NCBI RefSeq assembly: GCF_964355755.1
Contig: NC_092679.1
Span: forward strand, 14,429,432 to 14,493,431
From: Antedon mediterranea
Taxonomy: Eukaryota > Animalia > Echinodermata
Direction: 5' to 3'
Length of the DNA stretch: 64,000 nt
The position numbers and the translations under genes were made by a program. Under the pieces are notes generated by a model. The model was not told the origin of the DNA, searched no databases, and saw only the letters and a program-made list of their open reading frames with translations. Below, piece by piece: positions 9,793 to 62,989 of this stretch (its first letter is position 1; each line of letters begins with the position of its first letter).

Positions 9793-10733
9793 ATTTTCAC
9801 AGATTAGACATAGATACAGTACCACCTGATTTACCTTTATCTGTCAACATTTTACAGATTAGACATAGATACACTACCACCTGATTTACCTTTATCTATC
9901 AACATTTTACAGATTAGACATAGATACAGTACCACCTGATTTACCTTTATCTATCAACATTTCACAGATTGGACATAGATACAGTACCACCTGATTTACC
10001 TTTATCTGTCAACATTTTACAGATTAGACATAGATACAGTACCACCTGATTTACCTTTATCTATCAACATTTTACAGATTAGACATAGATACAGTACCAC
10101 CTGATTTACCTTTATCTATCAACATTTCACAGATTGGACATAGATACAGTACCACCTGATTTACCTTTATCTATCAACATTTCACATATTGGACATAGAT
10201 ACAGTACCACCTGATTTACCTTTATCTATCAACATTTCACAGATTGGACATAGATACAGTACCACCTGATTTACCTTTATCTATCAACATTTCACAGATT
10301 GGACATAGATACAGTACCACCTGATTTACCTTTATCTATCAACATTTCACAGATTGGACATAGATACAGTACCACCTGATTTACCTTTATCTATCAACAT
10401 TTCACAGATTGGACATAGATACAGTACCACCTGATTTACCTTTATCTATCAACATTTCACAGATTGGACATAGATACAGTACCACCTGATTTACCTTTAT
10501 CTATCAACATTTCACAGATTGGACATAGATACAGTACCACCTGATTTACCTTTATCTATCAACATTTCACAGATTAGACATAGATACAGTACCACCTGAT
10601 TTACCTTTATCTATCAACATTTCACAGATTGGACATAGATACAGTACCACCTGATTTACCTTTATCTATCAACATTTCACAGATTGGACATAGATACAGT
10701 ACCACCTGATTTACCTTTATCTATCAACATTTT
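9793..10733. repeat. 55-bp minisatellite, about 17 near-identical copies
   Basis: unit acatttcacagattggacatagatacagtaccacctgatttacctttatctatca; acagtaccac at 10201 and 10311 (two periods). Confidence 0.97.
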
Positions 10734-38737: not shown

Positions 38738-40155
38738 AGAAACTTCAACGAGTACTTTAAACGTCATGCGTTAATAAAATATTTTCACGGAGTAAATATA
38801 ACAAAACAGGAAAAAATCTGAGATATTCGTAGCTCTGAAATTCATATTCATAGGTTTACCAATGTTTTTAAATCACGCAAATGAATAAGGCCTATCATAG
38901 CATAGGCCTATGTATTATTTCCCATGTAAAACTTTATTTTAAAATACAATGATCGTTATAAACACCATGGTGTTAAAATGTAACGGCACTGATAACACAC
39001 CAAGTGTTAATAATATGCTACTTTAACACCTACCGTTGATAATTAAACATCACAACGTGTTAAAATACAACGCCAGTTTTTACAGTGTGGTCGTTGTCAT
39101 AAATATTGACAGCGTCTTCATTGATGGGATTATTGTTGCCAGCGTCGCGGTTACTGGGTGGCGTCGTGATTGTTGGCATAGTTATTGACAGCGTCTGGGA
39201 TGGACACGCGAAATTTAGGACAAAAAAATAGGATAATTTTTATTGTTATCCGTAAATAATAATATATTTTTTCATACATCTGTTATTTTGTTTTCGTAGT
39301 CGTTGAAATACATGATGAGTCTGATAACCAAATGATCCTTGTGTGAGCTTCCACCAAGATACCCCCTCGTTCGTGACATCTTCCCCGCTACATCTCGTCC
39401 ACCTCAAAGTGAACCTCTAACTGATCTCTTTCCTTCTTTCTTTGCCGGTTTTCCCACATCCTTAACTTATACTGAGTGTCTCGTTCTCGCCTCATGGCCA
39501 GTCTATGACGGCGTCTTTGGTTCTGCCTTTCCTCTTCTTCTAGTTTGTACTATAAAAAAAGAAGCTTAATTTAGAGGTATTCTATAAATAATCTATAAAT
39601 AAAATAGGTCCACTGGCATGTTGACATTCCCCTTCTCTCCCTCTTTTCCCCACCAACCCACTTGGTTAATTGTTTTTCTTTGTGTGTTATTTAATTATTT
39701 TACCTGGTGGAATTTATTAGCGGGTTTAAATCCTTGCATTAGCAGATTATTACGACGGCGAGGATGGTTGTTTCGAACACTGCAGAAGATTGACGGTAGC
39801 TCTCTGTCCACACCAGGCCCAAACGATAATTTCAGCTCATGTATGAGTCCGTATCGTGTCGGTGGTCGACGTCGTTGGACACTAGCAAGCTGACTGGCTA
39901 CTGACATTTCCGATGCAATGCTGAAAAAACAAGGAATACTTATCAAGATGGTGATGTTGAAGATAATTTGTTAAGAAATGAATATGATGGCGATAATTAA
40001 TGATAATGATGATGATGAATTAATTGTAATTATTGCGGGTGATTTACCTTCTAATCTGATTCTGTGCATCGGCAATCCAATCATAGTCACCTTTTGGAAA
40101 ACGAAGTAATATTAATAAGTTTTACTCATTTTTAGAAATGAAATATCTATAAATA

Positions 40156-43100
40156 GATATTATAACATCTCGCATCTGCGAAGATATGGAACTAATCGAT
40201 ATAGACCGAACTCACCGACTTGGACGGAAGAAAGTACTCCATAACAACAAAACACGCAGCAGTTCTAAACCGAGGCCTCGTCCGATTATCGTAACATTTT
40301 CCACATACCGCGCACGAGCAGAAGTGTTTCGCAACAAGAAATTGCTTAAAAATTCTTCTTACTCTATAACCGAGAACTTAACACCTTCTCGCATGACCCT
40401 CCTGCGCGAAGCGGGCGCACATGCCGCTGTGGAAGCCGCGTGGTCGCTCGATGGACGGATCAACTGCCTTCTGCACAACAAGAAGAAGATTGTCATTAGG
40501 TCTACATCCGACCTCCGTAATCTCTAGATGTAATTAAAACATCAACTATCAATTAATATTGCTTGTATGTTCCGCTGTGCGGATTCAGCTACAGTAAACC
40601 TTGATTGTTCCTGTCTGATCCCAAAATTATTTATATTACATATTACTCCTGCTGTTGTCGTTTATCGTCATCATCATCTTTTATTATTATTATTATTAAT
40701 GTTATTATTATTATTGTTGTTATTTTTATTATTATTATCGTTATATTATTATTGTTGTCACGAGTGTTAAATAAATACACTTGTATTTATTTATTTATTT
40801 ATCTATTTAAGAAAAAAACAACAACTCTATTACAATTGGCCTACCTCACTTGTGTTGTTTATCTGCTACTTGCAAGTACAATGGTAACTCGCTATCAATT
40901 TAAGTAGTATACGTAATCATAATTACATGGTACATAGTACCTTACACATTATTACAAAATTAACATTCCTCGACTTGCAACTATTATTACTACCGGTATT
41001 ATTTACTATTTATTATCTATTATAATAATACGATATATGAAATAGAAATTATATATAATATATATGTATAATTTTATAAACGACAGTGTTCATTTGACTG
41101 GATTATACCAATTTCACCCACTGTCCAAAAATGCATTTTACGAGTCAATGCGTTGCGATTTTTGAAATTATTATTTAATCAAAATTTATCTTACTTATCA
41201 CGTCACTGTAACCTACTTCTACGTAAATTTGTTCTATGTTGTGTGTGTACTGTAATAAGTGTATAAGGACAAACACATATACAAGCTGTTCTATTTGTAA
41301 CAAGCCATCCCATACAAATTGCGCCCCTCCATCTGTGAACTTTTATTGCCTAAAATGCCTTGCCGACTCTCTTCCTTTCAATCATATAACAAATGATGAT
41401 GAATTCAAATACGAAATAAATCAACTTAACAATGATCATACTATAAGCTTTCATGAACTCCAAAATTTAAAAATTAATCCCTTTGAAATAAATGATAAAA
41501 CTGACAAAAATAATGATAATATAGGCCTAACTAATAAAAATGACAAATGCGAATGCTACTTAAGTGATACATTTAATAACAAAATCAGTAACAAAAACAC
41601 AATGCTAAGCATAATCCATATGAATTCCCGTAGCCTGGTCAAAAATTTCAATTCTATAACAAATTATCTTCTCACCCTAAACCATAAATTTTCCATTTTA
41701 GGCTTCAGTGAAACTTGGTTTGACCAAAACAATTCCCCTCCTCCTCTTACACATATTGATGGATATACATTGGTACAATGAAAAGGTGGAGGGGTCGCCC
41801 TCTATATTTCAAATGATTTAAACTTTAAAATTAGAACCGACATCAATTTACCGTCCAATCCAACATATGAATCCCTCTTTATCGAAGTTGAAAATGAAAT
41901 TAAAAAATAGCATAGTAGGTATTATATACAGACCACCCAATAGTTCCACCCATCCCTTTTTAAACAACCTCTCAACATGCATTGACATGGCGTCACGTGA
42001 AAAAAAACACTCGTTTGTTTGTGGCGACTTTAACCTTGACCTTCTCAAACATACAACACATAGTCCCACTAATGAATTTTTAAACATCATGTACTCTGCA
42101 TCCTTTTACCCTCTCATTGATAAACCCACCCGAATTACTACCAAATCCTCTACCCTTATTGATAACATATTTTCCAACGTTCTTGACCATAAACTTACTC
42201 CAGGTATACTATACAACGACATCACCGATCACTTCCCAATATTCCAAATACCAAATAATCCCAATGGTAACTCTCATACTCGTCAGATACAAATTAAAAA
42301 TACGTACTCCACAAGAAAAATTAATTCTAAAACAATTGCATCATTAGGTGTCAATTTAATCAACACAAACTGGAATGAGGTATATGAAAACAACTCTGCG
42401 GAGGAATCATATAAATCATTCCATGATAAATTTTCTTTATTATACAATACTAATATTCCAAGGACAAAAATTAAAATAAATAAACGCAAACTAAACAAAC
42501 CTTGGATAACAAATGGAATAATAAAATCTATAAATACTCGAAATAAACTATATAAAAAATACATAAATTCACCTACCCAAATCAATAAAACCAACTATAT
42601 AACATTCAGAAATAAACTTACCCATCTGATTAGAATTTCAAGTAAACAACATTTTACAAATAAATTTGATAATTACAAAAACAACATAAAAAAAACATGG
42701 CAAACAATCAATAATATCTTAGGGAAAAACATCCAAAAGACAACAGCCACATTTTTTCTAAATGACGACATTAAATTAACTGATCCCATTGAAATTGCTA
42801 CCAAATTTAATCAATATTTTACTGAAATTGGCCCCAAGCTTGCTTCAAAAATCCAATCCAACGGTGGAAATTTCTCTGACTTTCTCAACAACCCCACCAA
42901 AGACTCTATCTTCTTCTCCCCCACCTCTAGCAAAGAAATTCTCGACATCACATCAAAATTTAAAAACGGCAAAAGCTCTGGGCCGGATGACATTGACCCT
43001 AAGGTCTTAAAAGATATTGCACCATTTATTGCCGGTCCCCTTACTCATATTTTTAATCTTTCTCTTTCTACTGGTATTTTTCCTTCCTCCCTAAAAACTG

Positions 43101-44833
43101 CTAAAGTAATCCCCGTTTTCAAAAAGAACGACCCACATTCCTTCTCAAACTATCGACCTATCTCTCTCATACCTTGCTTTTCTAAAATACTAGAACGCAT
43201 TATCTATGACAGACTTTATCATTTCTTCTCTACCCATAACATTCTTCAAAACAACCAGTATGGCTTCCGCTTACAACACTCCACTGATCTCGCACTTCTT
43301 GACATCCAAAATAAAATTTCTGTCGCACTATCAAATAAACATCACACCATTGGCCTATTCCTCGACCTATCCAAAGCTTTTGACACTATTGACCATTCAA
43401 TCCTCTTATCTAAACTTAACCACTATGGCATCCGTGGAATTCCTTTATCCCTAATTACTAACTACCTTCAAGACAGAATGCAATTCACTTCTTTTAATTC
43501 TCACTCCTCTGACATCCTTCCTGTTAAATGTGGCGTTCCTCAAGGTTCTATTCTTGGTCCCCTTCTCTTCCTAATCTACATAAATGATCTGATTTATGCC
43601 TCAAACTATTTCTCTTATGTTCTATTTGCAGATGACACTAATATCTTTCTCTCCAGCCCAGATCCTAACACTTTAATTCAAACTTTCAACCGAGAAATCC
43701 GAAACGTTTCAAACTGGTTTAAAATCAACAAGCTTTCACTAAACATCAGCAAAACAAATTACATTCACTTTTCCGGAAATAAAAACAATAATAATGCTAC
43801 AAATACAAATATCTATATCGATAATATACCCATCAAACCAGTCGACCACACCCATTTTCTTGGTGTAATTATTGATAATAAACTGAACTGGAATCTCCAT
43901 ATTAATAACATATCAAACAAAATTTCAAGAACTATTGGCATACTAAATAAACTTAAATTCACTCTTCCGTCTAACATCCTTTTTTCTTTATATAATACTC
44001 TAATACTTCCACATCTCTCTTACTGCAACATTGCATGGGCAGCCACTAACTCAAAACATCGAACTCTCTGTCCATGGACCAGCACGGAAACAACCAAAAT
44101 AGACAAACTTTTCAAACTCCAAAAAAAGGCCCTTCGCATTTGCACTCTCTCAAAATACCTCTCCCACTCTAAACCTCTTTTTCACACCCTAAATACCCTA
44201 AACATTTTTGACATTAATAAATTGCAAACTGCCCTCTTCATGTTTAGGTACTCAAATAACAAACTACCATCCACTTTCAACGGTTTCTTCACTAAAAATA
44301 ACGAACTACACAAATATAACACTAGGAACGCAAACAACTACATTTCCAAAAACTATAGCAGTAAGCAAATACTTAACTCTATACTACATACCGGTCCCCT
44401 ACTCTGGAACTCTCTTAATCCGTCAATAACTAATAGCAAAACAAATAATACTCTAAAACTAAACTACAAATCTTATCTAATATCAAAATATAAAGTAAAT
44501 TAATTATTTTGATCATATTAATAACTTATAATTAAATTTAATTAGGCAAATCATATAAATACAGTTTGTCCTTCCTGTCGTCCTTGTCGTGTTTGTATCG
44601 TCGTACATGTCCGTCTCTGTCTGTCAGTAGCGTACCATCACTTTGCTTATTATTATCATTTTTAACTTTTTTATTCTTTCTGGTGGATCCAGGCTTAAAG
44701 CCCCTTGGGGTTTAAATGGTATTCTCCAGGCATAATGCAACTATTATTTACTTAATTTCCAACCACTTGTATCTTTTATATTTTGTATATGTTTGCATTA
44801 TGTGAATAAATTTGAACTTGAACTTGAACTTGA
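40156..44833 (+). mobile_element. CR1-group (Crack/Daphne-like) LINE, truncated within ORF1
   Basis: ORF1 C-terminus (IDRTHRLG..RPIIVTF..ITENLT), ORF2 PHD-APE-RT, 3' hairpin near 44680-44730, aataaa-(ttgaac)3 tail; sits in an intron of gene copy B. Confidence 0.92.
41236..44503 (+). pseudogene. LINE ORF2: N-terminal PHD-like finger, AP endonuclease, reverse transcriptase (disrupted near 41780-41900)
   Basis: CxxC..CxxC..HxxC..CxxC; SETW, GDFN, TDHFP; GVPQGSILGP, FADDT. Confidence 0.92.
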
Positions 44834-44924: not shown

Positions 44925-45215
44925 GAAATAAACAATATCTTAAATAAGGCACCTCATACCTTCTTGGACCATCTTTCCGTCGTCGTCCTCTACGTCCGAC
45001 CACAAACTGTTCCTGTCGTCAGAGTTATCTTCTGGGATATTGAGCTCATCGTCGTTGTTTAGAAGTTCTACAATGGGCTGATCTCTATTGAATTCAAAAT
45101 TAAATGAAATTCATATATAAATCATACATATCATATATAAATAGAATAATAGACCAAAATTCAAACATTTTGAAATGTTTTTTTTTTTTCGCTTATTATT
45201 TAATTAATGATATAT

Positions 45216-45523
45216 TGTTGTAAAACGGCCGAGATTATAATACAACTAGCAGAAAGTAGTGTAGCTTACCTGTCGTTGTGGACTGGTCTCCTGGGAGTTC
45301 ATAGCCCAGCAATTGCCAATAGTAAATACTACAATCCTTATGTGGTATCTGGGTATCACACACGGTAGACACTCAGTCTAATATTCCGATGAGCGGTGTC
45401 TGTTCTCCGTGTATATGCTATTCCGTCTAAACCTCACGAGAGCGCTGGTCTCTTCAGGACGGCACACATGACCTCTGGTCACTCGGTGGACTGAACCATT
45501 AAGCGGAGGGGTATTTCACTACA
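45216..45523 (-). repeat. 3' LTR
   Basis: 308 bp, 3 mismatches seen versus 61759-62066. Confidence 0.97.
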
Positions 45524-45533
45524 CTTCCCCCGA
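45524..45533 (-). other. polypurine tract
   Basis: gggggaag immediately before the 3' LTR on the minus strand. Confidence 0.8.
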
Positions 45534-45698
45534 TTTTATAAGGCCAGGGCCGGTGCTCGGATGGTCATGCTGTAAAATAAAACAATAACTTCTGGTTAAC
45601 GCTAGAATAACCGAACCCGGTGCATCTTCTAGCACATTACAAAAAATAACATAATAGAATAACTTAAAACTTCTGGTAGGCCGCCGGAATGGTCGGCT

Positions 45699-47376
45699 CT
45701 ACACCATAAGGAACAGATCTCGGCCGTTCTTCCGGGTCAAGTCTAGCACTTGCTCGGCGTCCTGGCCCAAGATCCTTCCAACTTTCCAACTGCCTCTGCG
45801 GTGGGATGGAGCAGATGTGGTGCACCCACTCGTTGCCCCGGGGGAGCAAAGTGGGGCCCATCTGATTCCAGTAACAGGCGACGGTCATCCGTGCGGAAGA
45901 TGTTGTGTCTGCACGCTTCCTTTTGCTCTTCGTTGAAGCTCTCCACCGACCGTGTAAAGCTGAAATAGGTCAGGGGGAAAACACTCCTAAACCTATCCGC
46001 CATTAGCACAGTCGATGAGAAATTATGCAGTAGAATGCGTACGCATCTCTTGGAACCCGTGCTATCTGCAAGATGTTGAGGCAGTTCTGATAACACGTCT
46101 CCGCCGTCGCGTCGTTGCGGCTGCCTCTTTGGTGCAGGCAAATCGCCAGATGGTGTCGAGGTGAGAAAGCCTGTGCCAGGAGGCAACGCAGCATCTCTTC
46201 CTGCCTAAACCAGTCAGCTACCGGAGCGGAGTGGTTCAAGCCAATCTCCCCGAGCACCCGGGCAGCGCCGGAGCGCACCAAGGCTTTCAGTCGGGAGAGT
46301 TGACCCGGCGAGACGTCCTTCTTGGGGTGCACCCCGACCCCCACCTCATACTCCTCTCGCCGAAGAAGGCGATGAATCTCCTCCGCTGAAGGGTAAGAGG
46401 GAGGATCGCAAAATATGGCGACACCCCCGACAGGTCTTACCGGCTTCGTCTGGGCTCCAGCTGGTTCAGCTAGCAAGGTCTCCATCAGTGTGGCTCGCGG
46501 AGACAGCCTCAGAAAAGAGCGCAAACGGTCCGGGTGGAAGTGGGCGTCGAACGCTCTTATCGTGGTCCGCACCATCTTCTTCTCCCGCCTGGAGGGGGTC
46601 GGTGACCCGAGCCTCCTCTTGCGTTTTACGTTCTTACGTCTGGTGGCTGGTGGCTGGGCGCGGCCAGTCTCGGCCTCAGCTTCGGCGGCGGAAGGCTGGG
46701 CGAGGGGATTCTTGGCCTCAGCTTCGGCGGCTAGCTGGCTCATCTTGGTGATATCCATCCGCTGGGCCATCGCTACCATGTAGCGCCAGTGGATTAGGGC
46801 CGCTGGATGGTTGAGTGGCACAATGTTAAATCCTTCAGGTGGCTCACCTCCGATCGCCGCTTGTAGCTCGGAAATCATCTCCAGTGTCCTCTGGTCGATG
46901 ACGCCTACATGCGGACCAACAGCCCTCTCAGCATTCAGCTGGGTGACCAGGTCGTCCAAAGTGGACTCCGGCGGCCTACCCAATATTTCGACGGCGTACT
47001 TCCGCAGCAGGCAGAGTTTGGTCTGTGTTTTCTGCGGAGTCGACGGTAATTTAAAACATGAGGGGAGGTGGTGGGACCACACGTGCCTCCTCATGTTGTG
47101 CACAGCCTCGAATTTACATCCTGGAAACCCGCACGGGTTTTTACGCCGTGGGCGCGAATCCTCGGTCGGCGCGCTGGATGGTGGTGGTTCTGGCGTTGAC
47201 TCGAGGGCAGTATCTACACCGGTCACGTCTCCACTGACCTCCGCCGTTGGTGCTGGGGTAGGTTCAGATACGAGTAGTCGTCGCCGGGTTTCCTCCTGCT
47301 CCTCTCCCGACAGTGCACGCCACCGTCCATCGACTTGCCGTTGTGTTAACCGGATGTCGGTTGCGCCGAAAACAAC
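45699..47376 (-). pseudogene. env-position ORF: C2H2-like finger + basic NLS-like patch + TatD-family metal-dependent nuclease (two frameshifts)
   Basis: FDAHFH, GVHP, GEIGL, LHQR, LHNF, LLESDGP and terminal EQVLDLTRKNGRDLF motifs in TatD order; frame opens exactly at splice acceptor 47377. Confidence 0.85.
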
Positions 47377-47444
47377 CTATGGAGATACAAAAACACAAAG
47401 ATAATTAAATAACGGTACCCTACAATCGCTTCAGCTTGGACTAC

Positions 47445-47873
47445 TCAGTCTCTGCAGTTAGCGCATTTGTAGCGGTCGATATTCAGAGCGTCTAAAGGTG
47501 AGACATTCACGCAGGCGCCATGGTACCAAACGTCGCAGTAGTCGCACTGAATCATGAATGACCCAGCCCAGGGTCTTCGGCAGGAACAGTATAGCGTTCC
47601 AGGCGCATCGTCGACATTCTCATCGCTCGGATCTGAAAGAGATAAATGATAGTTAGCTATCCACCCCGGGAGCTGCCGGTCGTGACAGGGCTTGAGCTTG
47701 TCGTGGTTCAAAACCATCACCTTGTTCCTCAGCTTGACCCGGAACAGTCCCGGAGAGATAACTTGGATGATGATGCCGGGTCCCTTCCAAGGAGGACACA
47801 GCTTCTTACATTTACCCTTCGGTTGGCTATTATCTAGCACATATACCTTATCCCCACGGTTGTAGGGGCGTTG
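47445..47873 (-). pseudogene. Gypsy integrase C-terminus with GPY/F motif and PHD finger
   Basis: continues MKRDYDLRVL|QRPYNRGDKVYVLD across the LINE insertions; PWKGP; YCSCRRPW..FMIQCDYCDVWYHGAC..YKCANC. Confidence 0.92.
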
Positions 47874-50800
47874 TCATCTCCCATTCCATGATTTTACTAT
47901 AGATTCTGATACTATTAACCATAGTGATATATCTAACATTATTATAAACCCTCATACTGAATATGATAAATTTGATGAACATTCCGAGCCTCTTGCCAAC
48001 CAATTAAATTCTAGAAATTCGACACTCGAGGATTGTATATACTATGACACTAATCATTTTAATACCACTTTTAGAAATGTTTCAAATTCCCTAATTTCTC
48101 TCTTTCATGTTAATATTAGAAGCGTTATAAATAAAACTGATTCCCTTGAACAATTTTTAAATTCAATTAATTTAACATTTTCTATTATTGGTCTCTCTGA
48201 GACCTGGTTAAATGACACGTCACCTACTCCCTTCTTGCATAATTATTCATTTATATTTCAAAATAGGCAGTCTGGTAAAGGTGGTGGCGTAGCTTTTTTC
48301 GTAAAAAAACGATCTTAATGTTAGAGTCCGTCTTGATCTATCGATTTCTCAACCATATGATTCCCTTTTTCTAGAAATAGTACATCCTAATAAAAAAAAT
48401 ACAATCGTTGGTGTAATTTACCGTCCTCCAGATGGTAATATTGATCATTTCTCCAAATCCTTCGATGAACTCTTAAATAAAATAAATTCTGAACATAAAC
48501 CCTGTCATATCATGGGCGATATAAATATTGATATCATAAAATATCAAAATCATATTCAAACTAATAATTATAGCCTATTGATATGTTACTTTTTCGCTCA
48601 TTTAATCCAACAATTTCAAAACCTACTCGAATCACACCGACTACCGCCACCTTGATTGACCATTTTTACACCAATATTATTGATACAAAAATACATTCTG
48701 GTGTATTTTTTTTTATATATCCGACCACCTTCCTATCTTTCATATAGTAGATGAAAAATTATACCATACTGACACCGACAATGTACCATCTCGTATAATA
48801 GATATTGATGCTTTGTGTGGTGATTTGGTTGAGGAAAATTGGTCAGAGGTTTACGATTGTGACCAACCCGTATCTTTTGATAAATTTCTTTACACATTCT
48901 ATAAAATTCATAATAAACATATTAAAAATAAATATAATGTATCAAATAAAATGAAAGCAAAATAGTCTTGGATGACACCTGGCTTAATTAAAAGTAGCAA
49001 AAAGAAACAAAAACTTTATAAAAAATATATTTATTCTCATGATATTCAACATAAAAGTATACTAAACTCTGTCGAACCGCCAAAAGAATGCATTATATAT
49101 CAAAATTATTAAGACCAGAAAATCGAAACAATTTCCCATCCCTCATAAATAACGGTTTTGAAACAATTACATCAACTAAAGAAATATGCGATTCATTTAA
49201 TAATTACTTTTCAACAATTGGTTCAAATTTAAATAATTCTATGCCTGACCCTCATATTGACCCAATCTCATATTTACCTAATCCAATTTCTCAATCCTTT
49301 TTTATAAATCCTGTTACAAAAGAAGAAATAATAATTATTGTCAACAATTTAAATCCTAATAAAGGATCTGGTGACGATAATATCACTTCACGCACAATCA
49401 AACAAATACTACCGTACATAATTGACCACCTTACCTTCTCTATAAATTGTTATTCTCATCTGGTGTATTTCCAAATTTATTAAGAATAGCTAAAGTTTTC
49501 CCAATCTTTAAGAAAGGTGACAAGGGTCAAGTTAAAAATTACAGGCCTATCTCCCTTCTTAGTGCTTTTTCTAAGATCTTAGAAAAACTCATGCACCACC
49601 AGCGACTCTATGATTACCTTACTAAATTCAACATTCTTTATACTCACCAATATGGCTTCCGTCATAACCATTCCACATCCCATGCAATTCTGGATCTTGT
49701 TAACAACATCACCTCATCTCTTGACAATAAACAATTTTTACTCTCCGTTTTTATAGACTTTTCAAAAGCGTTTGATGTCATCAATCATAAAATTCTTCTT
49801 GTTAAAATATTTAATTATGGCATTAGAGGAATTGCATTAAACTGGTTTGAAAGTTATTTAGTAAACCGTAAATAGTATGTTGCGTTAGGCTCATTTAAAT
49901 CATCAGTGGAGGCTGTAAATTGCGGAGTGCCTCAAGGGTCGGTTTTAGGACCACTACTATTTTTAATTTATGTAAATGATCTTTCTAGATCAAGTCACAC
50001 TCTGAAAGTCATATCCTTTGCTGATGATACTACGATTTTGTATTCTCATTCTGATATCAATGTCTTATATAACACCGTCAACACTGAACTAAATAAAATG
50101 ACTGACTGGTTCATCTCAAATAAGCTTATTGTTAATGTACAGAAAACTAATTACATTTTATTTCGTACTCAACAAAGACAAATTGATTTCTCTAATCTTA
50201 ATATTTACATTAACAATAATATTATTGAACGTAAACCCGAAGTATTATTCCTCGGAGTTTATTTACATGAATACTTGAGATGGACCAGTCATCAAGCGTA
50301 TGTATCTAAAAGATATCTAAAGTAATTGGCATCCTTTGTAAATTAAGACATTTTTTTCCACAACATATCTTACTCTTGTTATATAACACCCTTATACAAT
50401 GTCATCTTTATTTCAACATTATTTGGGCAGCCGACTACCCATCAAATTTAGAAAAACTTAATAAACAAATTAAACGTGCTGCCCGTATTATTACTTTCTC
50501 TCACAATCCCGCCCCTTCCCAACCTTTACTTAAAAAACTCAATATTCTTAGTCTACATGATCTATTTACAACACAAATTGCTTCCTTTATTTTTCAATTC
50601 TTTAATACCAAACTCCCTGTGACAATGTCTAATCTATTAAGTCATCATACAAAATCACACAAGTACAATTTACGTATCGACAATAAATTTCAGCATCTTG
50701 ATGTACCTCCTTTTAGACTGAAAATTTCCGAATATTTTATTTCTGTTTCAGGACCGCGAATCTGGAATGATCTTGATGACAAACTAAAGCATTTTAAATC

Positions 50801-51124
50801 TCTTTATACTTTTCGTAAAAATTTAAAAAAATATCTTATTTCTTTATACTAATTTTAATATTATTATGATTGTAGTACACTGGAAGTATCTATTTCTATT
50901 TCATCGTTTTTGTTTTTATTTATTACTTTATATAGTAAATTGTATTAGTTTAAATGTATGTGTATTGTTTCTGGGGTCTTTCTCGAGACAAGAAACTTGA
51001 TTTCTTCTAGAGAAGACCCCAAATGATGGCTTATTACTAATGTTTTCATTTATGTACACATCTATATATTATACTGTATAATGCCATTGTTGAACAAATA
51101 AATGTTTTTTGAACTTGAACGTGA
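47874..51124 (+). mobile_element. 5'-truncated, decayed CR1-group LINE nested in Gypsy integrase
   Basis: APE (SETW, YRPP) and RT (GVPQGSVLGP, FADDT) fragments; 3' hairpin ggggtctt...aagacccc near 50973-51020; ttgaac tail. Confidence 0.92.
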
Positions 51125-54100
51125 TAATAATAATAAGAATAATAATAAGATTTTTATAGCGCACATACCACTCCAGAGTGCTCAAGGCGCATTTAAAAAT
51201 AAAAAGAAATAAATCATACAAATTCCTGACAAATAAAATGCAATTTCTTTGGAGGGTCCCCATCCGTTTTCGTTCTGTCGCGGTCCCGGACCCCTACCTA
51301 GGTGACCAAACAAAGGAGCAGGATACACATTTGCCTTGCCACAGACGACCGGGTGCTCAGAGACAACAACCAAGACAGAGGCACCCCAAAGATAATGCTG
51401 GCCAGGAAAAGGTATACAAAACAATTCTAAGCCTAAAAAACTTTAAGAAACCTCATGATTTCCATATGCCTTAATGAATAAATGTGTTTTTAATAATTTT
51501 TTAAAAGTCTCAACAGTTTTGCAAAATCTTATAGAGCTCGGTAGAGCATTCCACAGACGAGGAGCAGTAACGGAGAATGCTCTGTCACCCCATGAGTGGT
51601 GAGACTTAGGCTGATGTAGAAGCAGCGAGTCACTAGAACGCAGATTACGTCCGGGAACATACAGCCTAAGCATGTCAGAAATATATTCAGGAGCCATGCC
51701 ATTTATAGACTTAAAAACAAAGAGTAATATTTTAAAAACAATGCGGTACCTAACAGGGAGCCAATGCAATATTTCCAAAGTATTTGATATGTGTCCATAT
51801 CTTGGTAATTTTTTAACAACTCGTGCCGCTGTATTTTGAATCAGTTGGAGCCTGTGGAGTTGTTTTGTGGTAGCCCGTATAGCAAAGAGTTTCCCATATC
51901 CAGTCGTGAAGTGACAAAAGCATGAACAAGTTGTTTAGCTGCTGTCTCATTTATAAACTTGCGAATCCTTCGAATGTTTCGCAAGTGAAAAGACGACGCA
52001 GAAATAGTTTTTGAGATATGAGAAATCATAGTCATACCCACATCCATTTCAACCCCAAGATTTCAAACCTGCCTAGCCGGGTCAATTTGGGTTTCACCAA
52101 TGTGAATAAAGCTTGGTGGCAGTTTTTCCAACTGCTGTTTTGATCCAAAGAGAACAAATTCTGTTTTTTCATCATTTAATTTAAGAAAGTTGTTTTTCAT
52201 GCAGACACGCAATTCATAGATACAATGTTGGAGCAATTCCAAAGAAATGTCACTGTGTTTCATAGTAGGTTTAAAAGAAATATAAATCTGAGTATCATCA
52301 GCATAAACATGATAGCACAGATCATATTTACTTATGATATCCCGTATCGGGTGTAAATAAATAGTAAACCATTGCGGCCCAAGAACAGATCCTTGTGGTA
52401 CCGAAAAGTTTAGAAAAGAAGCTTTTGAAATAGCATCACCAATACATACGTGTTGAGGTCGTTTTTCCAAATATGACCGACACCAATCAAGTGCATTTCC
52501 TTCAATACCAATATAAGTACTGAGTCTATTTAGCAACACAGAATGATCAACCGTATCAAATGCTGCACTTAAATCTAATAATACTAGAGCAGTTAGCTTT
52601 CCATCATCCATCCCACGTAGGATGTCGTTATTTACACGAAGTAATGCCGTTTCAGTACTGTGATGCGCTTTGTAGGCAGATTGATACGGATCAAGTAGGC
52701 CATGTTTTTGTACATGCGACAAAATCCGTTTAGAAACAACCTTCTCAATTATTTTTCCTAAAAAACTAAGATTCGAGATAGGTCTGTAGTTTTTCAGAAT
52801 CTCGGGATCTAGACCTGTTTTTTTCAATGTGGGTCGAACGTGAGTGACTTTTAGAGACTCTGGGAAAGAACCACTTTCAAGAGACTTATTAACAATATGT
52901 GTGATTAATGGAATAAATGCAGAAGTACATTTCTTAATCAGTCAAGTTGGTACCGGGTCAAGTGCACACGATTTAGAGGGAGAATTTTTGACAATTTTTA
53001 AAATTTCCTCATCACTTGCAGGTTCGAACTGAGAAAACCGTATAGACCTAGTAAAACCATAAGATATATTACATTTATCAGAAGCAGTTATAACTTCGGC
53101 AGTATTTTCATTTTCTAGTGAATCACGAATTGATTTAATTTTATTTACAAAAAACACAGAAAATCTTTCAGCAAGAGCTTCATCGGAGACAGACGAAGGA
53201 AGGACCGATGACTTGGAGTGATGTAAAAGTTTATTTACTATATTGAAAAGTTTCTTTTGATCACCTGTGCAGTCACTAACCAGACTAGAGTAATACCGCG
53301 TCTTGGTCTTTTCAATCAGTCCATTTACAACGCATCTTTGAACACAGTATTCCTGTCTATCCTTAAGAAGCTTTGATTTCATCCATTTACGTTCAAGTTG
53401 ACGACGTACTTTCCTTTCAGATCGAATTTCATCGGTATACCACGGTTTAGCTTCATTTTGCCTAATTGTTTTGTTCTGAACTGGCGCATGTAAATCAAGT
53501 ACAGCTCTGAGATCAGAATAGCTTTCTACACTGTCTTCAAGAATTACACTTACATCGGTTATATTAGACACACAGGCTTTAATGTCATTTGTGAATTTCT
53601 CAATATCAATTTGTTTTAGGTTGCGACTTTTTCTTACAGTTTTGTGTGTTGTGGGCCGTTTAAGATCAAACTTGCAAAATATGGGAAAATGATCTGACAG
53701 GCCAGGGTGTATCTTTACATCCGAGAGCAGTAGATCATCTCTAGTGATGATAAGGTCGAGGCAGTGCCCACTACAGTGTGTGGGTTCATTTATATGCTGC
53801 TGGAGACCAAACGATCTAAGCAGTGTTTTAAATCTATCCGCTGCCACATTTTTTTTATTATCCATATGGATATTAAAGTCTCCGCAGAAAACAATTTCAG
53901 ACGAAAAGAGAATAAAGTCAAACAAAATTTTTTCAAAATCATTTAGGAACTCTGTAACCGACAAGGTTGGTGGTCGATATATGTTAACTAAACGAAGAGA
54001 TTTAGAGTTAGACGTAATATGCACATGTATAGCCTCAAATGATGCATATGTATGTACATCCGTTTTTAAGTTAACAACTAAGCTTGACTTAGACAGAATT

Positions 54101-55099
54101 CCAACACCACCCCCTGTTTTGTCCACCCTAGGGACATGCACAAAGCGATATCCTAGTGGAGTTAAATCTCCAATCACAAGATCATCGTCTGGTCTTAACC
54201 AGGTTTCAGACACCGCCACTACATCTAGATTATACAGTCCACAAATTCATCACACTTGTTACGCAGTGAACGTGCATTTAGAACGCCAAAATTAAGATGT
54301 GCTTTTTCTTTAGACCTATGCTTTTCTGTGGATTTAGTACTCGTCTCACCATTTCCAGATACTTGCTCCACTCCTTTTCTTGAGGCTTTGCGTTGCGTGG
54401 ATCGAGCATTAAGTACACATAATTTTAATTTAGAAAAATGAGTACTTATGGTGCTGTGTCTTTTTGCAGTCGACTGTGTCCAGGTACTGCAGGGAATAAT
54501 TTCGCCAGTGTAGCATAGCAAAAAGCTATACAAAACAACCTTTTTGCTACACATTTCTACAATTATGTAGCAAAAAATACAATACAAAACTATGTTTCTT
54601 GACTAAAAAATCAGTTTGATTATCAATTTTGCTAAACAACATTTTCAAATGAAATTTTTCTCTGTACTGGCTCCACTCTTGGTGTATTTGGTCTCTGTGG
54701 GGTTTTATTTGTAGAAATTGATGATTCTCCAATGGACGATTTGCTTCCGTTTGTCGTTGATACATATTCGCACGATGAAAAATCGACGACTGTGGCTTGT
54801 GTATGTCAGGCACAGGTACAGACAAAGATTCGTCGCACGAATTTCCATTGATGTGGTTTATAACATTTTTGGCAAATGACCCAACTCCAATTTGGTTTAG
54901 GTGAGTTCCATCCGAAGACAGGTGTTTTGACATGATACAACTATTGTCAATAAAGCCCCAATTTCGCTGTCTAGCAACTGCTCGTATCTTGTCATTGGCA
55001 TCGTTTATACGCTTAGATTCTGTAAGAGATTCATGTTTTCGATGAATTATCGAGGAGATTGTTACTCTTCTCGGTTGTAAAGATTCTCCGAGAGATTGA
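51125..55099 (-). mobile_element. L2-clade LINE with SGNH-esterase ORF1 remnant and APE-RT ORF2, nested in Gypsy integrase
   Basis: DGTHLN esterase block; SETW, GDFN, SDH; LDLSAAFD, VPQGSVLGP, YADDTQ, LHWLPV; gcgctataaaa-(tat)n tail. Confidence 0.92.
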
Positions 55100-58000
55100 G
55101 AGGACACGGAGGTCGTAGTCTCTCTTCATGCGTCGCTGCGTTTCCCCCAGAGTAGCCCGTGCTATGTCGTGTGCTTCACGGATTGATTGTGCGAGGGCAG
55201 TCACGTAGTTATCGGGTGCTCGTGCAGTGGGAGGGTCGCTAGCTGTAAACATGAGATCGGCAGGAAGGTTGATCTCTCGTCCGAGCATCAGCATGTTGGG
55301 AGTGTAACCCGTCGAGCGATTCACCGTCGCCCAGAGGGCTACAGTTAGCTGTGGTAGAAACACATCCCAATCTTTCTGCTGCCGGCCTACAAAACATCCA
55401 TTCATCCATTCACAGCATCCATCAGTGTCCGGTTGTATCGTTCCACCTGGCCGTTGGTGGCGGGTCGGTAACTGGTGGTTCTGGTCTTGTGGATCTGTAA
55501 AACTTTACATAAAGAACTAAATAATTCACTTTCAAAATTACTCCCCTGATCAGAGTGGAGTTCCAAGGGCATCCCGAACCGGGAGAAGAAATTCCCTACC
55601 ACGGCTCGGGCCGTTACCTCCGCTGTCTGACAAGGAAGTGGGCTCGCTTCAACCCATTTAGTGAATTGGTCCACCATCATGAGAAAGTATACATTGCCCA
55701 TGTGGGTTTTACTTAGGCAAAGGCCCAAGGAAATCGATATGTACCCGTTCCATGGGTGTACCTGCATGAAAGTTTGTTAAGGGATATCGGACTTTACGGC
55801 CGGTTTTCTTATTGCGGTTACACACTTCACAGTTGGCTACATACCTTTCGATATCCCTGGACATACCATACCAAAAGAACTGTTCCTTAAGACGAAAACG
55901 GGTTCGGGCGATGCCTTGGTGTCCAGCTGAAGGGAGGTCGTGGTGTAGTCGCAGGGCGACTAGTTGCAAATCCCTTGGCAGTACCAAAAGGCGCTCGCCA
56001 GACGTTTCATGCTTCAGGAACATAATGCCGTCGTCGGACAGATGAAGACGGTCTCGATTCAACCAAAAGAACTTCGTGCTCGGGCTGAAAAGGAACAGCT
56101 CATTAGTTGAAGGGTCGTCTTTGCGCTCCAACCACCGCAGGATAGGCTGGAGATCAGCGTCCTTGCGTTGTTGGTCCTGGAGTTCGCTGACAGAGTACCC
56201 CCAACATCGGGCGGTCGGTGTCTCCGGCTGAATCGATGTGACCATATCTCCATCCTGTAAAATACAAATATTAGTTAATCCATTGGGAGCCCGGGTTATT
56301 TCCACGGTCGCTCGACCACCCGGGTCCCATAGAAACGCCTCACTACCCACTCCTCTACTCGCCTGTCGAATCTGGGAGATGGGTACGACGTCGTCGACAT
56401 CCTCCCGGAACCGTGCCCATTTCGCATGCGTCCTACGACAGTAGGTGCAACCCCCACAGGGCAGGTCGTCCGGAGTGATGGCGCCGTGCTCACCCCCCCC
56501 CCCCCCCAATACGGGAGAGTGCGTCTGCATTGGTGTGTAAACTACCCCGCCGGTGCTCGACTACCATGGTATACTGGCTGAGCTCCTCCATCCAACGAGC
56601 TAGTTGTCATTGGGGACCCTTGAAATTAAGGAGCCCAGCAGGTAGTGGCGGAAATGCCTGGTCATATACACAATGGCCAGCAAATCCTTACGAGTTGTGC
56701 AGTAGTTGCGTTGTTCAGCGGTGAGCCGGATGCTAGCGTAGGCGATTACTCGTTCCTTACCCTCTTGCATCTGCAGCAATTCACCGCCGATGGCGTGGTC
56801 CGATGCGTCCACATCTAGTATGAATTCATCCCGGATGTTTGGTAACGTCAAGACAGGAGGTTGAACCAATGCGTTCTTGAGAGATTCAAAAGCGATCCGC
56901 TGGTCCTCTCCCCACACAAATTGGACTCCCTTCTCAGTCAGACGGTACAACGGGACAGCCAGGTTGGCGAAAGAATTGATGAATTCCCGGTGGTAGTTAG
57001 CCAGACCAAGAAACTGTTGTACTTCCAGGTTGGTTGGCGTGGGCCAGCTCTGGACGGCTTCTACATCTGTGTCGGAAACTTTAAAGAGTTGTCACCGACG
57101 ACACGTCCAAGAAATTCTACCTTTCTCTAAAAAAAAACACACTTTTTGGGTTTTAGCTTAAGGTTAGCATTCCTAAATCTTCCCAGGACAATGGTTAAAT
57201 TATTCAGGTGATCTTCAAAGGTTTTTCCCAGCACGACGATATCGTCCAGAAATGCTAGTACGACGTCCCATACCAACCCTCGTAGCACTAACCCCATGGC
57301 ACGGGAAAACGTAGCCGGGCAGTTTGAAAGACCAAATGGCATTTTAACAAATTCATACAAACCATGCTTGGTAATGAACGCAGTTTTCTTCTGGTCCTCC
57401 TCCTTCATTGGGATCTGCCAGTATCCCCAGAGGGGGTCAAGCTTGGAGAACCAGATGTTTCCAGATAACGTATCGATGCAGTCCCTTACTAACGGCAACG
57501 GATAGGCATCCTTCGTGGTGATGTTATTCAGTGCTCGATAGTCTATACAGAAGCGCACGGAGCCGTCACGCTTCCGCACCAGGACTGGGGGTGATGCCCA
57601 CTCTGAGATGGAGGGTTGAATCACTCCAGCTCGGAGCATCTTTTTTATCTCCTTCTCCTCTTCACCAGCAAAGCGAATCGGCGTTGGTCGGAGCCGTTGC
57701 TTGATAGCCGGCGCCTTGCCCGTATCTATGATGTGCTCAATATCTTTGAACGTACCAATATCGAACTGATGTGAAGCGAAGGCTTCTTGATATTGAGTGA
57801 TAAGAGAAGACAGTTGTGCGAATTCGGAGTCGGAGAGATCAGTACGGGACGCTTCTAGCATGTCCACCAGATGCATGGGTACTGCCGAAACAGGTTCATC
57901 ATGACTGGCTGCTGAACATACATCTGCGGCGTTGGCTTCTCCATCCTCCTCCACCTGATCTACTTCTGTGGCTGTTGCAATGTTCCGTCCCTGTTTCAGA

Positions 58001-58990
58001 GTGACGTACCTGTCCGATGTGTTGACCACACACAGGTGCGGAATACGCAAACCTCGATGTGTGGTAGCTGGAATCGCCACAGAAGCGTTGATCTCTGGAT
58101 TTATAAAGAAATCTGGTAAAGGTAAATGGTTAGGTGAAAGTTGACATTGGACGTGCGCTACCGAGTGAGGTGGTATCACTATACACTTGGCGACAAGAAC
58201 CCGAGCGGTTCTCGGGGGTTCGGGTTCCCGATTTCCCCGCAGAGAGACTGTGCTCACACCCACGGTTAACAGCAGCTGTTCGCAGTCTACCATGGCCCCA
58301 TTTTTGACCAGAAAATCCTGACTTAACAACATTTCATCGTGAATCGGTGCTACATAGAAAAATTCAGTGTAGGATTCCTACCCTAGCCTAAAATGAATAG
58401 GTCCCACCTTGTAACCAGGCATCGATGTCCCTCTACCCGCTAGGGTAAAGTTAAGCTTGGCCATAATAGGTGGTTTAGGAACTAAACGAGAATATACGTT
58501 ATCTGAGAGTATCGTCTGGTCCGCAGCCGTGTCCACAACAGCTGTTACTTCAGTCTGATTCACGTAGACCGTGGTGTATAAGGCTCGGTTGGATCGTACT
58601 CGGTTGATAACGATTGGTTTTTCAGTTTCGTCTGCCGTGTCGGCTACTTCCGCTGGCCGAGTCCACCCCGCAGCACCCTGAGGTTCCAACGGTTCGTTGG
58701 AAGTCGAAGTCGTCTCCGCCACCTGGAAGCAGGTCTGGTTGCAGCGTTGTCTCTGAAAGATTACTCATAGTAATGAAAGAATTATTAGTATTATCTTGAC
58801 CCGTGTTAATGTGACTAATACTTCTATTAATGTTATCACTATTATCTCGGTTATTGTCATTACTATTATTATTTTTACCATTATTCTTACTACCATTATA
58901 TTTACTGTTGTTACCCTTCACAAGACCTGAGCCCGGACGAGGTGACAGGTTGGGAAGCTGGGCTGCGCTTCCAACCTGGTCTAGTTTGAC
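55100..58990 (-). pseudogene. Gypsy pol: protease, RT, RNase H, integrase HHCC and DDE core (frameshifted)
   Basis: VVDTAA; FCIDYR, MPFGL, FLDD; LDVDAS; HHD..GH..CEVC; HIDF, HSDQG, NGQVER. Confidence 0.95.
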
Positions 58991-61029
58991 GACTGGTCAC
59001 CTTCCGACTCAATCTGTCGAACTTGTCGGGCTAACTTAGGACAGTCCTTTCTGAAATGACCTGGCTCTCGACACTCAAAACACACTCTCGGGGGCGAGGT
59101 TGAGTACCGTCTACCCGGCGAGGGTGGTGATGCAGGTGTTGGATGCAAGGCAGTTAATAGACTGTCGAACCTGGTCATCAAATGGCCCACGTTAGTCGTC
59201 AAATGGTCGACGTTCGTGTTCAGTTGCCCCACTTGTCGTTCGACCGCTTCCATCCTGGTCTCGGTGCGAGGTGGAGTCGGCCGTGGAGAACCTCTGCGAT
59301 CGTGTTGATCCTTCCTATCCACAGGCCCAGGGACGATAGGTTTCTCGAGGCTCACCGGGCGAGTCCACCCCTTTCCAACCTGTCGAACCTCTACCTCCTC
59401 CCCACTCTCAGAAGACTCTCTTGTATACGAGGGCGGCGACCGGTGATGTCGTTGGTCAGGCACAGTTGCGAATCGTACGTGCGGCCTCACCTGCTCTCTT
59501 GGTCGCCCCTTTCTTCCTCGATTACAAAGTTCCCTAAAGCCAATGTATTTCTCGTAGGCTGCCAGTGCTCTCACCAAAGTAGTATGATTCTGGTGTAGAA
59601 TATACTAACCGGCCTCGGCATCGAGACAACCCACGCAAAACTTCACGACTGCTCTCCGATGAATCCAGTCTTTAGGAAGTTCACGGAAAGCTTTCCTCGT
59701 TAGGGTGAGTACTCTGTCGCTCCAATCTTCAATGGATTCACCTTCCTGTTGGCTGGCCGTATCCAACTTCACTTGCAAGACCTCAGGTAATTCCTCAGCC
59801 TTGAAGCGCTCGTCGAAAGCTCCTATAATATGCCTGAAAGATAAATCTCGGTTCATATGAGTTAGGTTAATGAAGTAATCTGCCGCAATACCTGTAACGC
59901 ACCATTGAAAAGCATCGCGCATTCCTCTATCGCTGAGACCATATTCGTCAGCATAATTGAGGAACCGCTGCTTAAATAAAACCCAATTGTCCCACCCGCT
60001 AAACGACAGATTTTTAGGAATGTCCTTTGACCTAAAATGTGGTTGTTGCCGTCTAGGAGCCCTACGCTCGGTGGTCCGTAAGAACTCTCTAAAGGATCGA
60101 CGCTAAGAATTCATCGTGTTCGGTGTGAAATGATGGTTGGGTATATTCTCCCTCACTCTCGCTGCCGTCGTAATACGTACGGTCAGTGTTTTCATAAGCC
60201 CCGTCAACATGGCGTCTCTGAGGTATCTCTCTAGATGACCGCCTTGTTGGTGGATGACCCCCTCTGTTATTGTATTGGGGCCTGTGAGAGACAGGGGTGT
60301 GCGACCGTATATATGCTGATGTGGTGCTAGTAGTAACCCCGGGAATGTTACCCCTCATGTTAGACTGTTCAGTCTGAGGGGTAGCCTGGGCCCTGGAATA
60401 CACTGGCGTAATTCCAGGATTAACAGTTGATGTTACCCGTGTACCTTGAAATGATAAGGTGGGAGGGGTGTCCCGATACTCCGGTGCCCCCCAAGAATCT
60501 ACATAGGAGTATTGACCGGGCGTATTGGATGGGACAACTCCCTCCGGGCCACCTACAAACGGGTTAGATGGTGCAGCACCATTGCCATCGTAAAGAGGGC
60601 GGTCTTCCCCAAACTCGGAATGTAATGTAACATCCGGGAGTGTAGGGGATCTAAATTCGTGTCCCGGGTTGGCAGGGAAGTACGATCGGTCCCGTTCATC
60701 TCCCCGAGGCTCACGGTGAATCGTGGAATCCCCGTTAGTGGGATTTAAACTGGCCGCCCTAGTTTCGTTCCGTGCATCCACTAGGTAGTCACAGCGTTCG
60801 TTGTGGTGATAATCCCTCCCCGCTTAGGATTTAGGGTGAAGTCGAACCATCTGGAAAATTTGGTTTTCCCCAAACCCTTTATATCCCCAATATTGACCGG
60901 GGTGATATTCCCATAACGACCTCTCCAGTCTATTAATTTTTGAGCACGTGGAGCACCTATACCAGGCACCAGGAGTAGGTCTGTAACGCCTCAGAAATTT
61001 ATAGATATCAGTCTGGCTTTTGGAGGCAT
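58981..61029 (-). pseudogene. Gypsy gag with N-terminal helix-hairpin-helix and C-terminal CCHC knuckle (disrupted)
   Basis: ATG at 61029; LLVPGIGAPRAQKL..IKGLGK; QQEGESIEDW capsid-like motif; CFECREPGHFRKDC; tcaaactag stop with pol in the -1 frame. Confidence 0.85.
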
Positions 61030-61744: not shown

Positions 61745-61757
61745 GCTCGCAGCGCCA
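61745..61757 (-). other. primer binding site, probably tRNA-Ser
   Basis: tggcgctgcgagc one base after the 5' LTR; resembles the complement of tRNA-Ser 3' ends (from memory). Confidence 0.7.
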
Positions 61758-61758
61758 A

Positions 61759-62066
61759 TGTTGTAAAACGGCCGAGATTATAATACAACTAGCAGAAAGT
61801 AGTGTAGCTTACCTGTCGTTGTGGACTGGTCTCCTGGGAGTTCATAGCCCAGCAATTGCCAATAGTAAATACTACAATCCTTATGTGGTATCTGGGTATC
61901 ACACACGGTAGACACTCAGTCTAATATTCCGATGAGCAGTGTCTGTTCTCCGTGTATATGCTATTCCGTCTAAACCTCAAGAGAGCGCTGGTCTCTTCAG
62001 GACGGCACACATGACCTCGGGTCACTCGGTGGACTGAACCATTAAGCGGAGGGGTATTTCACTACA
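61759..62066 (-). repeat. 5' LTR
   Basis: 308 bp, TG...CA, followed by PBS. Confidence 0.97.
61813..61845 (-). CDS. putative LTR-encoded leader exon MNSQETSPQRQ for the TatD ORF
   Basis: atg aac tcc cag gag acc agt cca caa cga cag|gtaagc; phase 0 matches acceptor at 47377. Confidence 0.7.
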
Positions 62067-62989
62067 ATATGCATGTATCGATGACAAGAAGATTTATCCA
62101 ATAAAATGTAAATATTCTCCACATGAGTATGCATACATTATTCAGAGTAGTGTATTTAAAACTGTAAAGTAATACTAGGCTTACAGAACCATCGTTTCTT
62201 CCATGTCTTCACATTCGAGCTCATCTACTTCTATCACTTCTGTGTTAAGGTCCGTTAGAATACTGGAATAAAAGCAAATTAAATTATTAATTGTAAAATA
62301 TTTCAATTTAAGAATCCAATCTAGACACTATACTAAACAAATGCCAGACATACCTTCCATTGCCATTGACAGCTTCTGTTGTCACCACATCAACTGGTGG
62401 TTGTTGATCATCAACAATGTCTTTGATTGTTGCAGCATCGGTAGCTTCCTCATTATCAAGTCCGACTCTCTTCGACTTCTTCAGTGATCGTCGATGTCTG
62501 GCCAAACGGGATTTAGACTTTATTTTCTAGTGTTTCCCATCCTTAATATGCGACAGCTTGTCTGTGTCAATTGTCAACGCAGTTACTTGATCATCATCTG
62601 CTGTCAGATTTCCCTTAGCCCTGGTTGTATTGCAAACACTGCCCTTAGTTTTGGGTGTGTGTTTGTGCACAAAACAGACTCATGTGAACATTGAAAATAT
62701 GAGATCATTCTCAAGTCTGTCAGCAGAAAATGTAAATCTTAAACTCTGTTCTTAGATTCAGAACTTTCGGTGGCCAGTATCTCCTGGAAATTTGGAGGAT
62801 CAACGCTAGATCCGTCTTCAGAATTAAATTCGAATTCCTCAATTGCGTTTGCGTAAGGTCAACGAATTACCCATTAATAATTAATATAGATACAATACGA
62901 GATATGGAATCAATATAACTTTCCGAAAGGTTTCCAATAGTTTTCTGAAGGCGTTTGTTATGATCCGTTGATATGGCGATTTAGTTCTG

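Follow-up and report, generated by a model that had tools for sequence, protein, structure and literature searches.

A Gypsy retrotransposon with a TatD-family gene in the env position: a likely accessory nuclease of animal LTR elements

What is a TatD-family nuclease gene doing at the 3' end of a Gypsy retrotransposon? The question is raised by a 64,000-nucleotide stretch of the genome of the feather star Antedon mediterranea (the window, in which all positions below are counted). A preliminary description had placed such a gene in the env slot of the element and proposed that it encodes an accessory nuclease. The reading favored here, with moderate confidence, is that the window holds a dead Gypsy copy whose third gene (ORF3), a zinc-finger/helical domain joined to TatD, is likely a long-kept and lineage-wide accessory nuclease gene, probably captured from TATDN2.

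The element and its third gene

The element is 16.85 kb long and extends on the minus strand from 62066 to 45216. LTRs, primer-binding site (PBS), polypurine tract (PPT), and target duplication were all identified, as listed below together with the genes, in the order of the element.

62067..62070, minus strand: 5' target-site duplication ATAT, checked against a vacant copy of the repeat that flanks the element (near 22855)
61759..62066, minus strand: 5' LTR, 308 bp, TG...CA, 99.0% identical to the 3' LTR
61745..61758, minus strand: PBS, TGG..., from sequence inspection, which we take to be of the tRNA-Ser type
58981..61029, minus strand: gag, broken, with a PNMA-like capsid part and a CCHC knuckle (PF14893, PF00098)
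55098..58764, minus strand: pol, broken, with protease, reverse transcriptase (RT), RNase H, and integrase zinc finger and core, from domain matches
47872..55097, no single strand: nested insertion within the integrase, made up of two LINEs that face opposite ways, absent from a contig of another copy
47445..47871, minus strand: integrase C-terminal tail, SH3-like part and PHD finger (PF00628, E 7.7e-9)
45699..47376, minus strand: ORF3 with two breaks, comprising a DIRL motif, low-complexity arm, zinc-finger/helical domain, basic linker, and TatD, from frames and profiles
46720..47154, minus strand: zinc finger C-x4-C...H-x4-H and helical 'HWR' domain, present in 79/79 relatives of at least 500 aa
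45705..46560, minus strand: TatD domain, group II (HxH), from Pfam, family profile, and ligands
45524..45537, minus strand: PPT, directly before the 3' LTR
45216..45523, minus strand: 3' LTR, 308 bp, with 3 differences in 308 from the 5' LTR
45212..45215, minus strand: 3' target-site duplication ATAT, 4 bp
21500-24000, 39293-40155, 44926-45215, and 62068-62605 of the window: pieces of the repeat region, from sequence comparison

The domain order runs from gag through protease, RT, and RNase H to integrase, and the element is therefore Ty3/Gypsy. Of the two gag domain matches, PF00098 has an E value of 2.5e-6, while PF14893 (E 6e-5) is below its cut-off. The insertion site may be compared with that of the flanking repeat's uninterrupted copy, at about 22855: where the element is bordered by the 4-bp duplication, this copy has a single 4-mer (ATAC). 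Gag-pol is interrupted by many breaks, in addition to the 7.2-kb LINE insertion that splits the integrase, and the copy in the window is dead. A contig of another copy passes directly from 47871 to 55098 without this LINE insertion.

Other repeats were recorded in the window. The Gypsy element and a LINE are both inserted in one copy of a roughly 2-kb repeat, an uninterrupted inverted copy of which, 84–87% identical, lies at about 22300-24000. A nearly whole plus-strand LINE (40153-44503) has an open RT frame of 893 aa (PF00078), and an ORF1 piece (55125-54547) of the minus-strand LINE in the nested insertion resembles, by eye, an SGNH esterase. Long tandem arrays with units of about 22, 55, and 60 bases occupy 2200-4870, 9685-10860, and 12450-13780.

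The frame stopping at 47445 had been read as the end of the integrase. It is indeed the integrase tail, and the PHD finger at its end had been missed. The same SH3-PHD tail is found in a Pol protein from another genome (P0280), with 51% identity to that of the window over 141 aa. Through the reading of histone marks, the PHD finger may direct integration. The literature search gave nothing on point for PHD-tipped Gypsy integrases.

ORF3 lies between pol and the 3' LTR, in the env slot, and ends with a stop codon at 45701-45699. The Pfam TatD_DNase profile, which has a cut-off of 27 bits, matches two ORFs of this gene above that value, namely 47376-46006 (E 1.9e-8, 34.4 bits, profile 1-132) and 46204-45746 (E 1.8e-6, 28 bits, profile 142-233). 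When the TatD part is read through with X at both breaks, near 46050 and near 45780, it scores 235 bits on the family profile and aligns from end to end (positions 252-521). The two frameshifts described earlier at these places are thus both seen, and the motifs DAHFH, GVHP, GEIGL, LHQR, LHNF, ESDGP, and LTRKNGRDLF were all found on the minus strand in the order reported. Together with the LTRs, PBS, PPT, and target duplication, the Pfam matches bear out the description of a Gypsy element with a TatD gene in the env slot. The account of ORF3 itself was right about TatD, and had overlooked the zinc-finger/helical domain and the missing start codon.

All eight ligand and catalytic positions of TatD are present in the ORF3 of the window. 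At a further position, beyond the eight, it has N where 159/159 relatives have D. In the same 159 relatives, which are those with a nearly full TatD plus the second domain, the eight positions are conserved as follows: D 159, H 157, H 153, E 152, H 151, H 155, E 159, and D 156. PF01026 was found in 53/53 aligned relatives. The HxH motif defines group II of the TatD proteins, to which TATDN2, TATDN3, and YcfH belong (PMC10085689; this and the other articles are cited for the sections available), and the TatD of ORF3 is placed in group II because of this motif; it also scores above the PF01026 cut-off and has the Glu, His, His, and Asp ligands. The best structure matches of a model of one relative (P0003, pLDDT 80.7) are TatD proteins, with an E value of 1e-12, and among solved structures the family profile matches E. 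coli YcfH best, with human TATDN3 and TATDN1 ranking behind it. No transmembrane segment was found in ORF3, the maximal hydropathy being 0.81 in the first piece of the window's copy; among 110 long relatives, a hydrophobic segment reaching 2.0 occurs in 3 and a basic patch in 91.

The second domain was found in 119 of the 150 best relatives, including every one of the 79 with at least 500 aa. The C, C, and H of its zinc finger are invariant, and the C-x4-C...H-x4-H pattern is matched by 92/110 long relatives. Its model, of 145 residues, has a pLDDT of 93 and a pTM of 0.87, and a fold search in the PDB and viral sets gave no match at E ≤ 0.001 (best Z 3.4). The domain may be a new zinc-binding fold, the lack of a structural match being no proof of this.

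Some relatives vary in architecture. One protein (P0060) has the zinc-finger/helical domain twice, and in it and in P0117 the HxH motif is apparently lost, according to a motif scan. Gag-like CCHC knuckles occur in P0062, P0065, P0115, P0210, P0228, and P0230. Two proteins, P0223 and P0232, have a similar C-x4-C...H-x4-H finger, but their TatD groups with presumed host TATDN2; they may reveal where the architecture came from, or may stem from a second capture.

Relatives, other copies, and ancestry

The HMMER search gave 410 clusters of relatives (50% identity level) at E ≤ 1e-3, 159 of them at ≤ 1e-10. The best 150 of the 410 were examined individually, and TatD was present in 150/150. The named relatives are from Anneissia, Patiria, Ptychodera, Pecten, Argopecten, Mizuhopecten, Mercenaria, Dreissena, Crassostrea, Saccostrea, and Lingula, and so span echinoderms, a hemichordate, bivalves, and a brachiopod; Anneissia accounts for 3 of the 20 proteins first looked up. 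Many relatives are in multiple copies. In a Dreissena cluster of 20 members, the 15 listed are 91–98% identical, some of them being fragments, and lie on 9 sequences that differ in their chromosome-scale lengths, and clusters at the 90% level have up to 182 members, others having 64 and 52.

Two links to pol were seen at the protein level. The gene model of P0269 has an integrase core, 73% identical to that of the window, followed by the DIRL motif and then TatD, and its TatD matches a Lingula protein without a difference. Among the 15 members listed for the 182-member ORF3 cluster, 8 are Pol pieces, among them P0280, which ends in a PHD finger. Such a mixed cluster suggests a fused gene model bridging ORF3 and Pol, the bridging protein itself being unseen. 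No pol domain was found in the best 150 of the 410 relatives, as would be expected for a separate ORF. A word-index protein search, which is weak evidence in either case, gave no long fused forms (1844–5000 aa) and no match with the ORF3 of the window as query. Most of the 410 relatives are linked to Gypsy by their clade, their copy number, and these two protein-level links only.

Four relatives (P0012, P0015, P0020, and P0024) carry the database label 'TatD family hydrolase' and are assigned to bins of Candidatus Thiodiazotropha and Sedimenticola. Such entries are probably host DNA in the symbiont assemblies. Among 151 genomes of a symbiont family, no host-contaminated contig was found. Locus scans with the family alignment gave bacterial and phage TatD genes at about 172 loci, which were used as an outgroup; an RT scan of viral contigs gave 0/28, and a motif scan gave 1 chance match, in a phage tail gene.

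Other copies of the element were sampled in public sequencing runs. Eight runs of two organisms contain the stretch, and four of these were examined. In all four, from both organisms, contigs at varied identities cover every one of the 30 bins between the integrase tail and the LTR, so that the earlier claim of an element-encoded gene is not contradicted by family copies without the ORF. Contigs that span the PHD frame and ORF3 place the gene beside the same PHD-type pol in the two organisms. At the first break of ORF3, length differences are present in contigs of 3/4 runs, and at the second in 4/4. Therefore, the breaks are not universal among copies, although contig depths give no proportions of broken and intact copies. 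Length changes that keep the frame are frequent within ORF3.

For an estimate of selection, 59 changes were classed, from the 80 best-supported of about 900 rows, with non-coding rows, duplicate rows, and one integrase row excluded. In the two conserved domains, 17/29 listed changes are silent, against an expected fraction of about 0.3 (P 0.004 against 0.33). The values elsewhere are 10/17 in the arm upstream of the domains and 0/3 in the linker. In the TatD part alone, 5/10 listed changes are silent, which is not significant by itself. The excess of silent changes is a hint of selection and no dN/dS, the rows having been chosen by support.

The TatD of the window is 49% identical to that of its nearest named relative, a feather-star protein, and 26–29% identical to presumed host TATDN2, far from the near-identity to a host gene by which the element-encoded reading might have failed. 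In a quick tree of 102 rows out of 240 (26 chosen and 30 random family rows, candidate host proteins, and 28 bacterial rows), 58 family rows group together with a support of 81, beside short-branched gastropod, spider, and other proteins. In a careful tree of 37 rows, 16/16 family rows fall on one side (100/100), five presumed host TATDN2 proteins are apart (99/95), and 16 bacterial rows are separate, each of the three groups lying to one side of a branch supported at 99–100. The family is sister to presumed TATDN2 in this comparison, for which the trees were rooted on bacteria by choice and contain no TATDN1 or TATDN3, and in which the label 'host TATDN2' rests on one source name and on profile scores. 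Its separate clade, low identity, and multi-copy state set the family apart from orthologs of host TATDN2. The branching order is compatible with an old capture, probably from an animal TATDN2 gene.

The HMM matches, the presence of the ORF in other copies, the divergence from host proteins, and the conserved ligands are all consistent with the proposed 'element-encoded accessory nuclease', at the level of sequence. We are highly confident of the observations behind it: the layout of the element, the fold of the TatD part and its ligands, the conservation of the second domain, the large separate clade, the dispersed multi-copy state, and the integrase link in one other named species.

Expression, proposed role, and alternatives

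The first Met of ORF3 is codon 95, inside the zinc-finger domain, while conserved sequence begins already at codon 6. Two features may account for the start of the protein.

61813..61845, minus strand: candidate mini-exon in the 5' LTR, ATG plus 10 codons with a consensus donor, in phase with ORF3, from sequence inspection
47377..47398, minus strand: candidate splice acceptor, a pyrimidine tract and AG, directly preceding the first ORF3 codon

The acceptor ranks 4th of the 162 AG sites of the 3' region by a simple ad hoc score. Runs X5 and X7 both keep its AG; in X4, one contig shows a changed G. The donor of the mini-exon (intron from 61812) is among the 7 best of the element, both of the listed changes in the mini-exon are silent, and a comparable ATG with an in-phase donor arose in 54/2000 shuffled LTRs. 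Gag contains another strong donor (59490) that is likewise in phase, as counted by hand. No spliced contig was seen in the assembled public runs, none of which is recorded as RNA. In one run, a depth step at 47377 is accounted for by a contig break at a nearby variant, and two loose contig ends of the same run near the ORF3 start have no match in the window. A short intron joining the PHD frame to ORF3 was rejected, as there is no donor before the pol stop. A second strong acceptor-like site is present at 45569, in the interval between the ORF3 stop and the PPT (45524-45570).

Env is made from a spliced message. A similar arrangement is probable for ORF3, most likely with the 11-codon exon of the 5' LTR spliced onto the acceptor at 47376. 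Spliced messages are also typical of the ORF3s of LTR retrotransposons (PMC5408684). Among 119 long relatives, 75 possess a Met of their own together with an N-terminal helical domain, for which no match was found in the six frames of the window; because of these relatives, the splice arrangement may be special to the branch of the window element.

As to the function, TATDN2 is reported to be active on hairpin RNA and R-loops, and to degrade the RNA, not the DNA, of R-loops (PMC10711561). The ORF3 protein would be made from a separate spliced message and carried into the nucleus by its basic patch. In intact elements it would be a two-metal nuclease that, like TATDN2, degrades the RNA of RNA:DNA hybrids as well as structured RNA from the 3' end, and it would thereby clear the element's own hybrids and the RNA by-products that stall the element or feed host silencing. 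A nuclear, TATDN2-like enzyme with this clearing role is put forward tentatively, as a possibility that falls somewhat short of an even chance. The roles suggested in the preliminary description, namely trimming of cDNA, clearance of hybrids, and evasion of host sensing, are likewise putative.

The activity may instead be directed at DNA. The protein would then be packaged with Gag or be present at integration, and would trim the 3' ends of cDNA or cut abasic sites left after uracil removal, like YcfH, TATDN1, and TATDN3. A 3'-5' exonuclease activity on single-stranded DNA combined with AP endonuclease is common among TatD proteins (PMC10085689), the best solved match is YcfH, and the in-phase donor in gag could give a Gag fusion. 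However, the nearest cellular group is presumed TATDN2, and TATDN2 is reported to attack the RNA of R-loops but not their DNA (PMC10711561); moreover, most relatives are free-standing ORFs rather than Gag fusions. A DNA enzyme is considered unlikely, although the observations do not discriminate between it, the counter-defence enzyme described next, and the RNA and hybrid nuclease.

Slightly less likely again is a counter-defence enzyme, which would act in trans to destroy host small RNAs or their precursors rather than the element's own hybrids. The separate message and the large, variable arms would suit such a role, as would the fact that 3'-5' exonucleases have been gained here more than once, one case being the DEDDy enzymes of rotifers (PMC5408684).

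The family might also consist mostly of expanded or domesticated host genes, one member of which was taken by the element as a passenger. The databases do label members as TATDN2, YcfH-like, or TatD-like host genes, the context of most members is unseen, and P0223 and P0232, which have a comparable zinc finger, fall with presumed host TATDN2. Such an origin is nevertheless improbable in view of the position of the gene beside the same PHD-type pol in two organisms, the integrase link in the brachiopod, and the dispersed, 91–98% identical Dreissena copies with their fragments. Moreover, many members come from short contigs or from bins labeled bacterial, which suggests single-exon genes.

A neutral, one-time uptake of a TatD gene from a host or a bacterium by the window copy or its family, which the two breaks and the D-to-N change might suggest, is largely refuted by the 26–29% identity to host-type proteins, the deep clade, the excess of silent changes, and the second domain, which is absent from every ORF of the 172–173 bacterial and phage TatD loci.

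The accessory-nuclease reading may be extended beyond the window, to a proposal that we rate as close to, and slightly below, an even chance. An old Gypsy lineage of echinoderms, hemichordates, molluscs, and brachiopods would combine a PHD-tipped integrase with an active, TATDN2-derived nuclease, spliced or free, which carries a new zinc-binding fold and clears hybrids or silencing RNAs; most annotated 'TATDN2-like' and 'YcfH-like' genes in these animals would then be transposon genes.

Comparison with known systems

In the literature searched, to which Repbase, Dfam, GyDB, subscription papers, and supplements did not belong, no description of a TatD in a retrotransposon was found; the term has 0 occurrences in the available sections of PMC5408684, PMC6238403, PMC12440569, and PMC6338049. 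In one article, a figure legend on the squid Hox cluster counts a TATDN2 with the transposon-like genes there (PMC6962438).

With the group II TatD nucleases (TATDN2, TATDN3, E. coli YcfH, and YjjV; PF01026, TIGR00010), ORF3 has the HxH motif, the metal ligands, and the fold in common, and the long N-terminal arm with basic patches described for TATDN2 (PMC10085689, PMC10711561) has its like in the ORF3 family. The family differs from these nucleases in that it forms a separate, long-branched clade, is borne by LTR elements in multiple copies, and has a second domain of its own. With the env genes of errantiviruses and retroviruses, ORF3 shares the slot between pol and the PPT, and a spliced subgenomic message like theirs is likely for it. 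In contrast, env is a membrane fusogen with a transmembrane anchor, whereas ORF3 encodes an enzyme, for which Pfam gives TatD only.

The pol gene may be compared with that of the chromoviruses, which have a chromodomain at the end of Pol (PMC12440569). Both have a chromatin-reader domain at the integrase C-terminus, but in the window element it is a PHD finger, and no chromodomain match was found in its Pol. The element also differs from Troyka, which has CG...CG ends and a 3-bp target duplication (PMC12440569), in its TG...CA ends and 4-bp duplication.

The closest parallel is found in the Juno and Vesta LTR retrotransposons of bdelloid rotifers, which carry a DEDDy 3'-5' exonuclease or a GDSL esterase as ORF3 (Rodriguez, Kenefick, and Arkhipova 2017; PMC5408684). 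As in the window element, a non-env, enzymatic ORF3 follows pol, with intact catalytic residues, a 3'-5' exonuclease type, and a putative function. For the rotifer DEDDy ORF3s, evolution within the genome is reported not to depart clearly from neutrality (PMC5408684). Juno and Vesta have the RNase H-like DEDDy fold, in contrast to the TIM-barrel TatD of the window, which is neither DEDDy nor GDSL; the window element has, in addition, the zinc-finger/helical domain, a PHD-tipped integrase, and relatives in at least four animal phyla. An enzymatic ORF3 is therefore already known, and the TatD case is apparently undescribed in the literature searched.

It appears from this comparison that TatD is a second, unrelated class of 3'-5' nuclease in the env slot, accompanied here by a well-folded domain of 145 residues without a match among solved structures. 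Transposon genes or host contamination probably account for many genes annotated as TATDN2-like or YcfH-like in bivalves and echinoderms, and for 'TatD hydrolases' assigned to symbiont bins. The repeated gain of a nuclease, DEDDy in rotifers and TatD here, suggests a problem shared by LTR elements and solved by a nuclease, be it hybrids, RNA by-products, or silencing RNAs.
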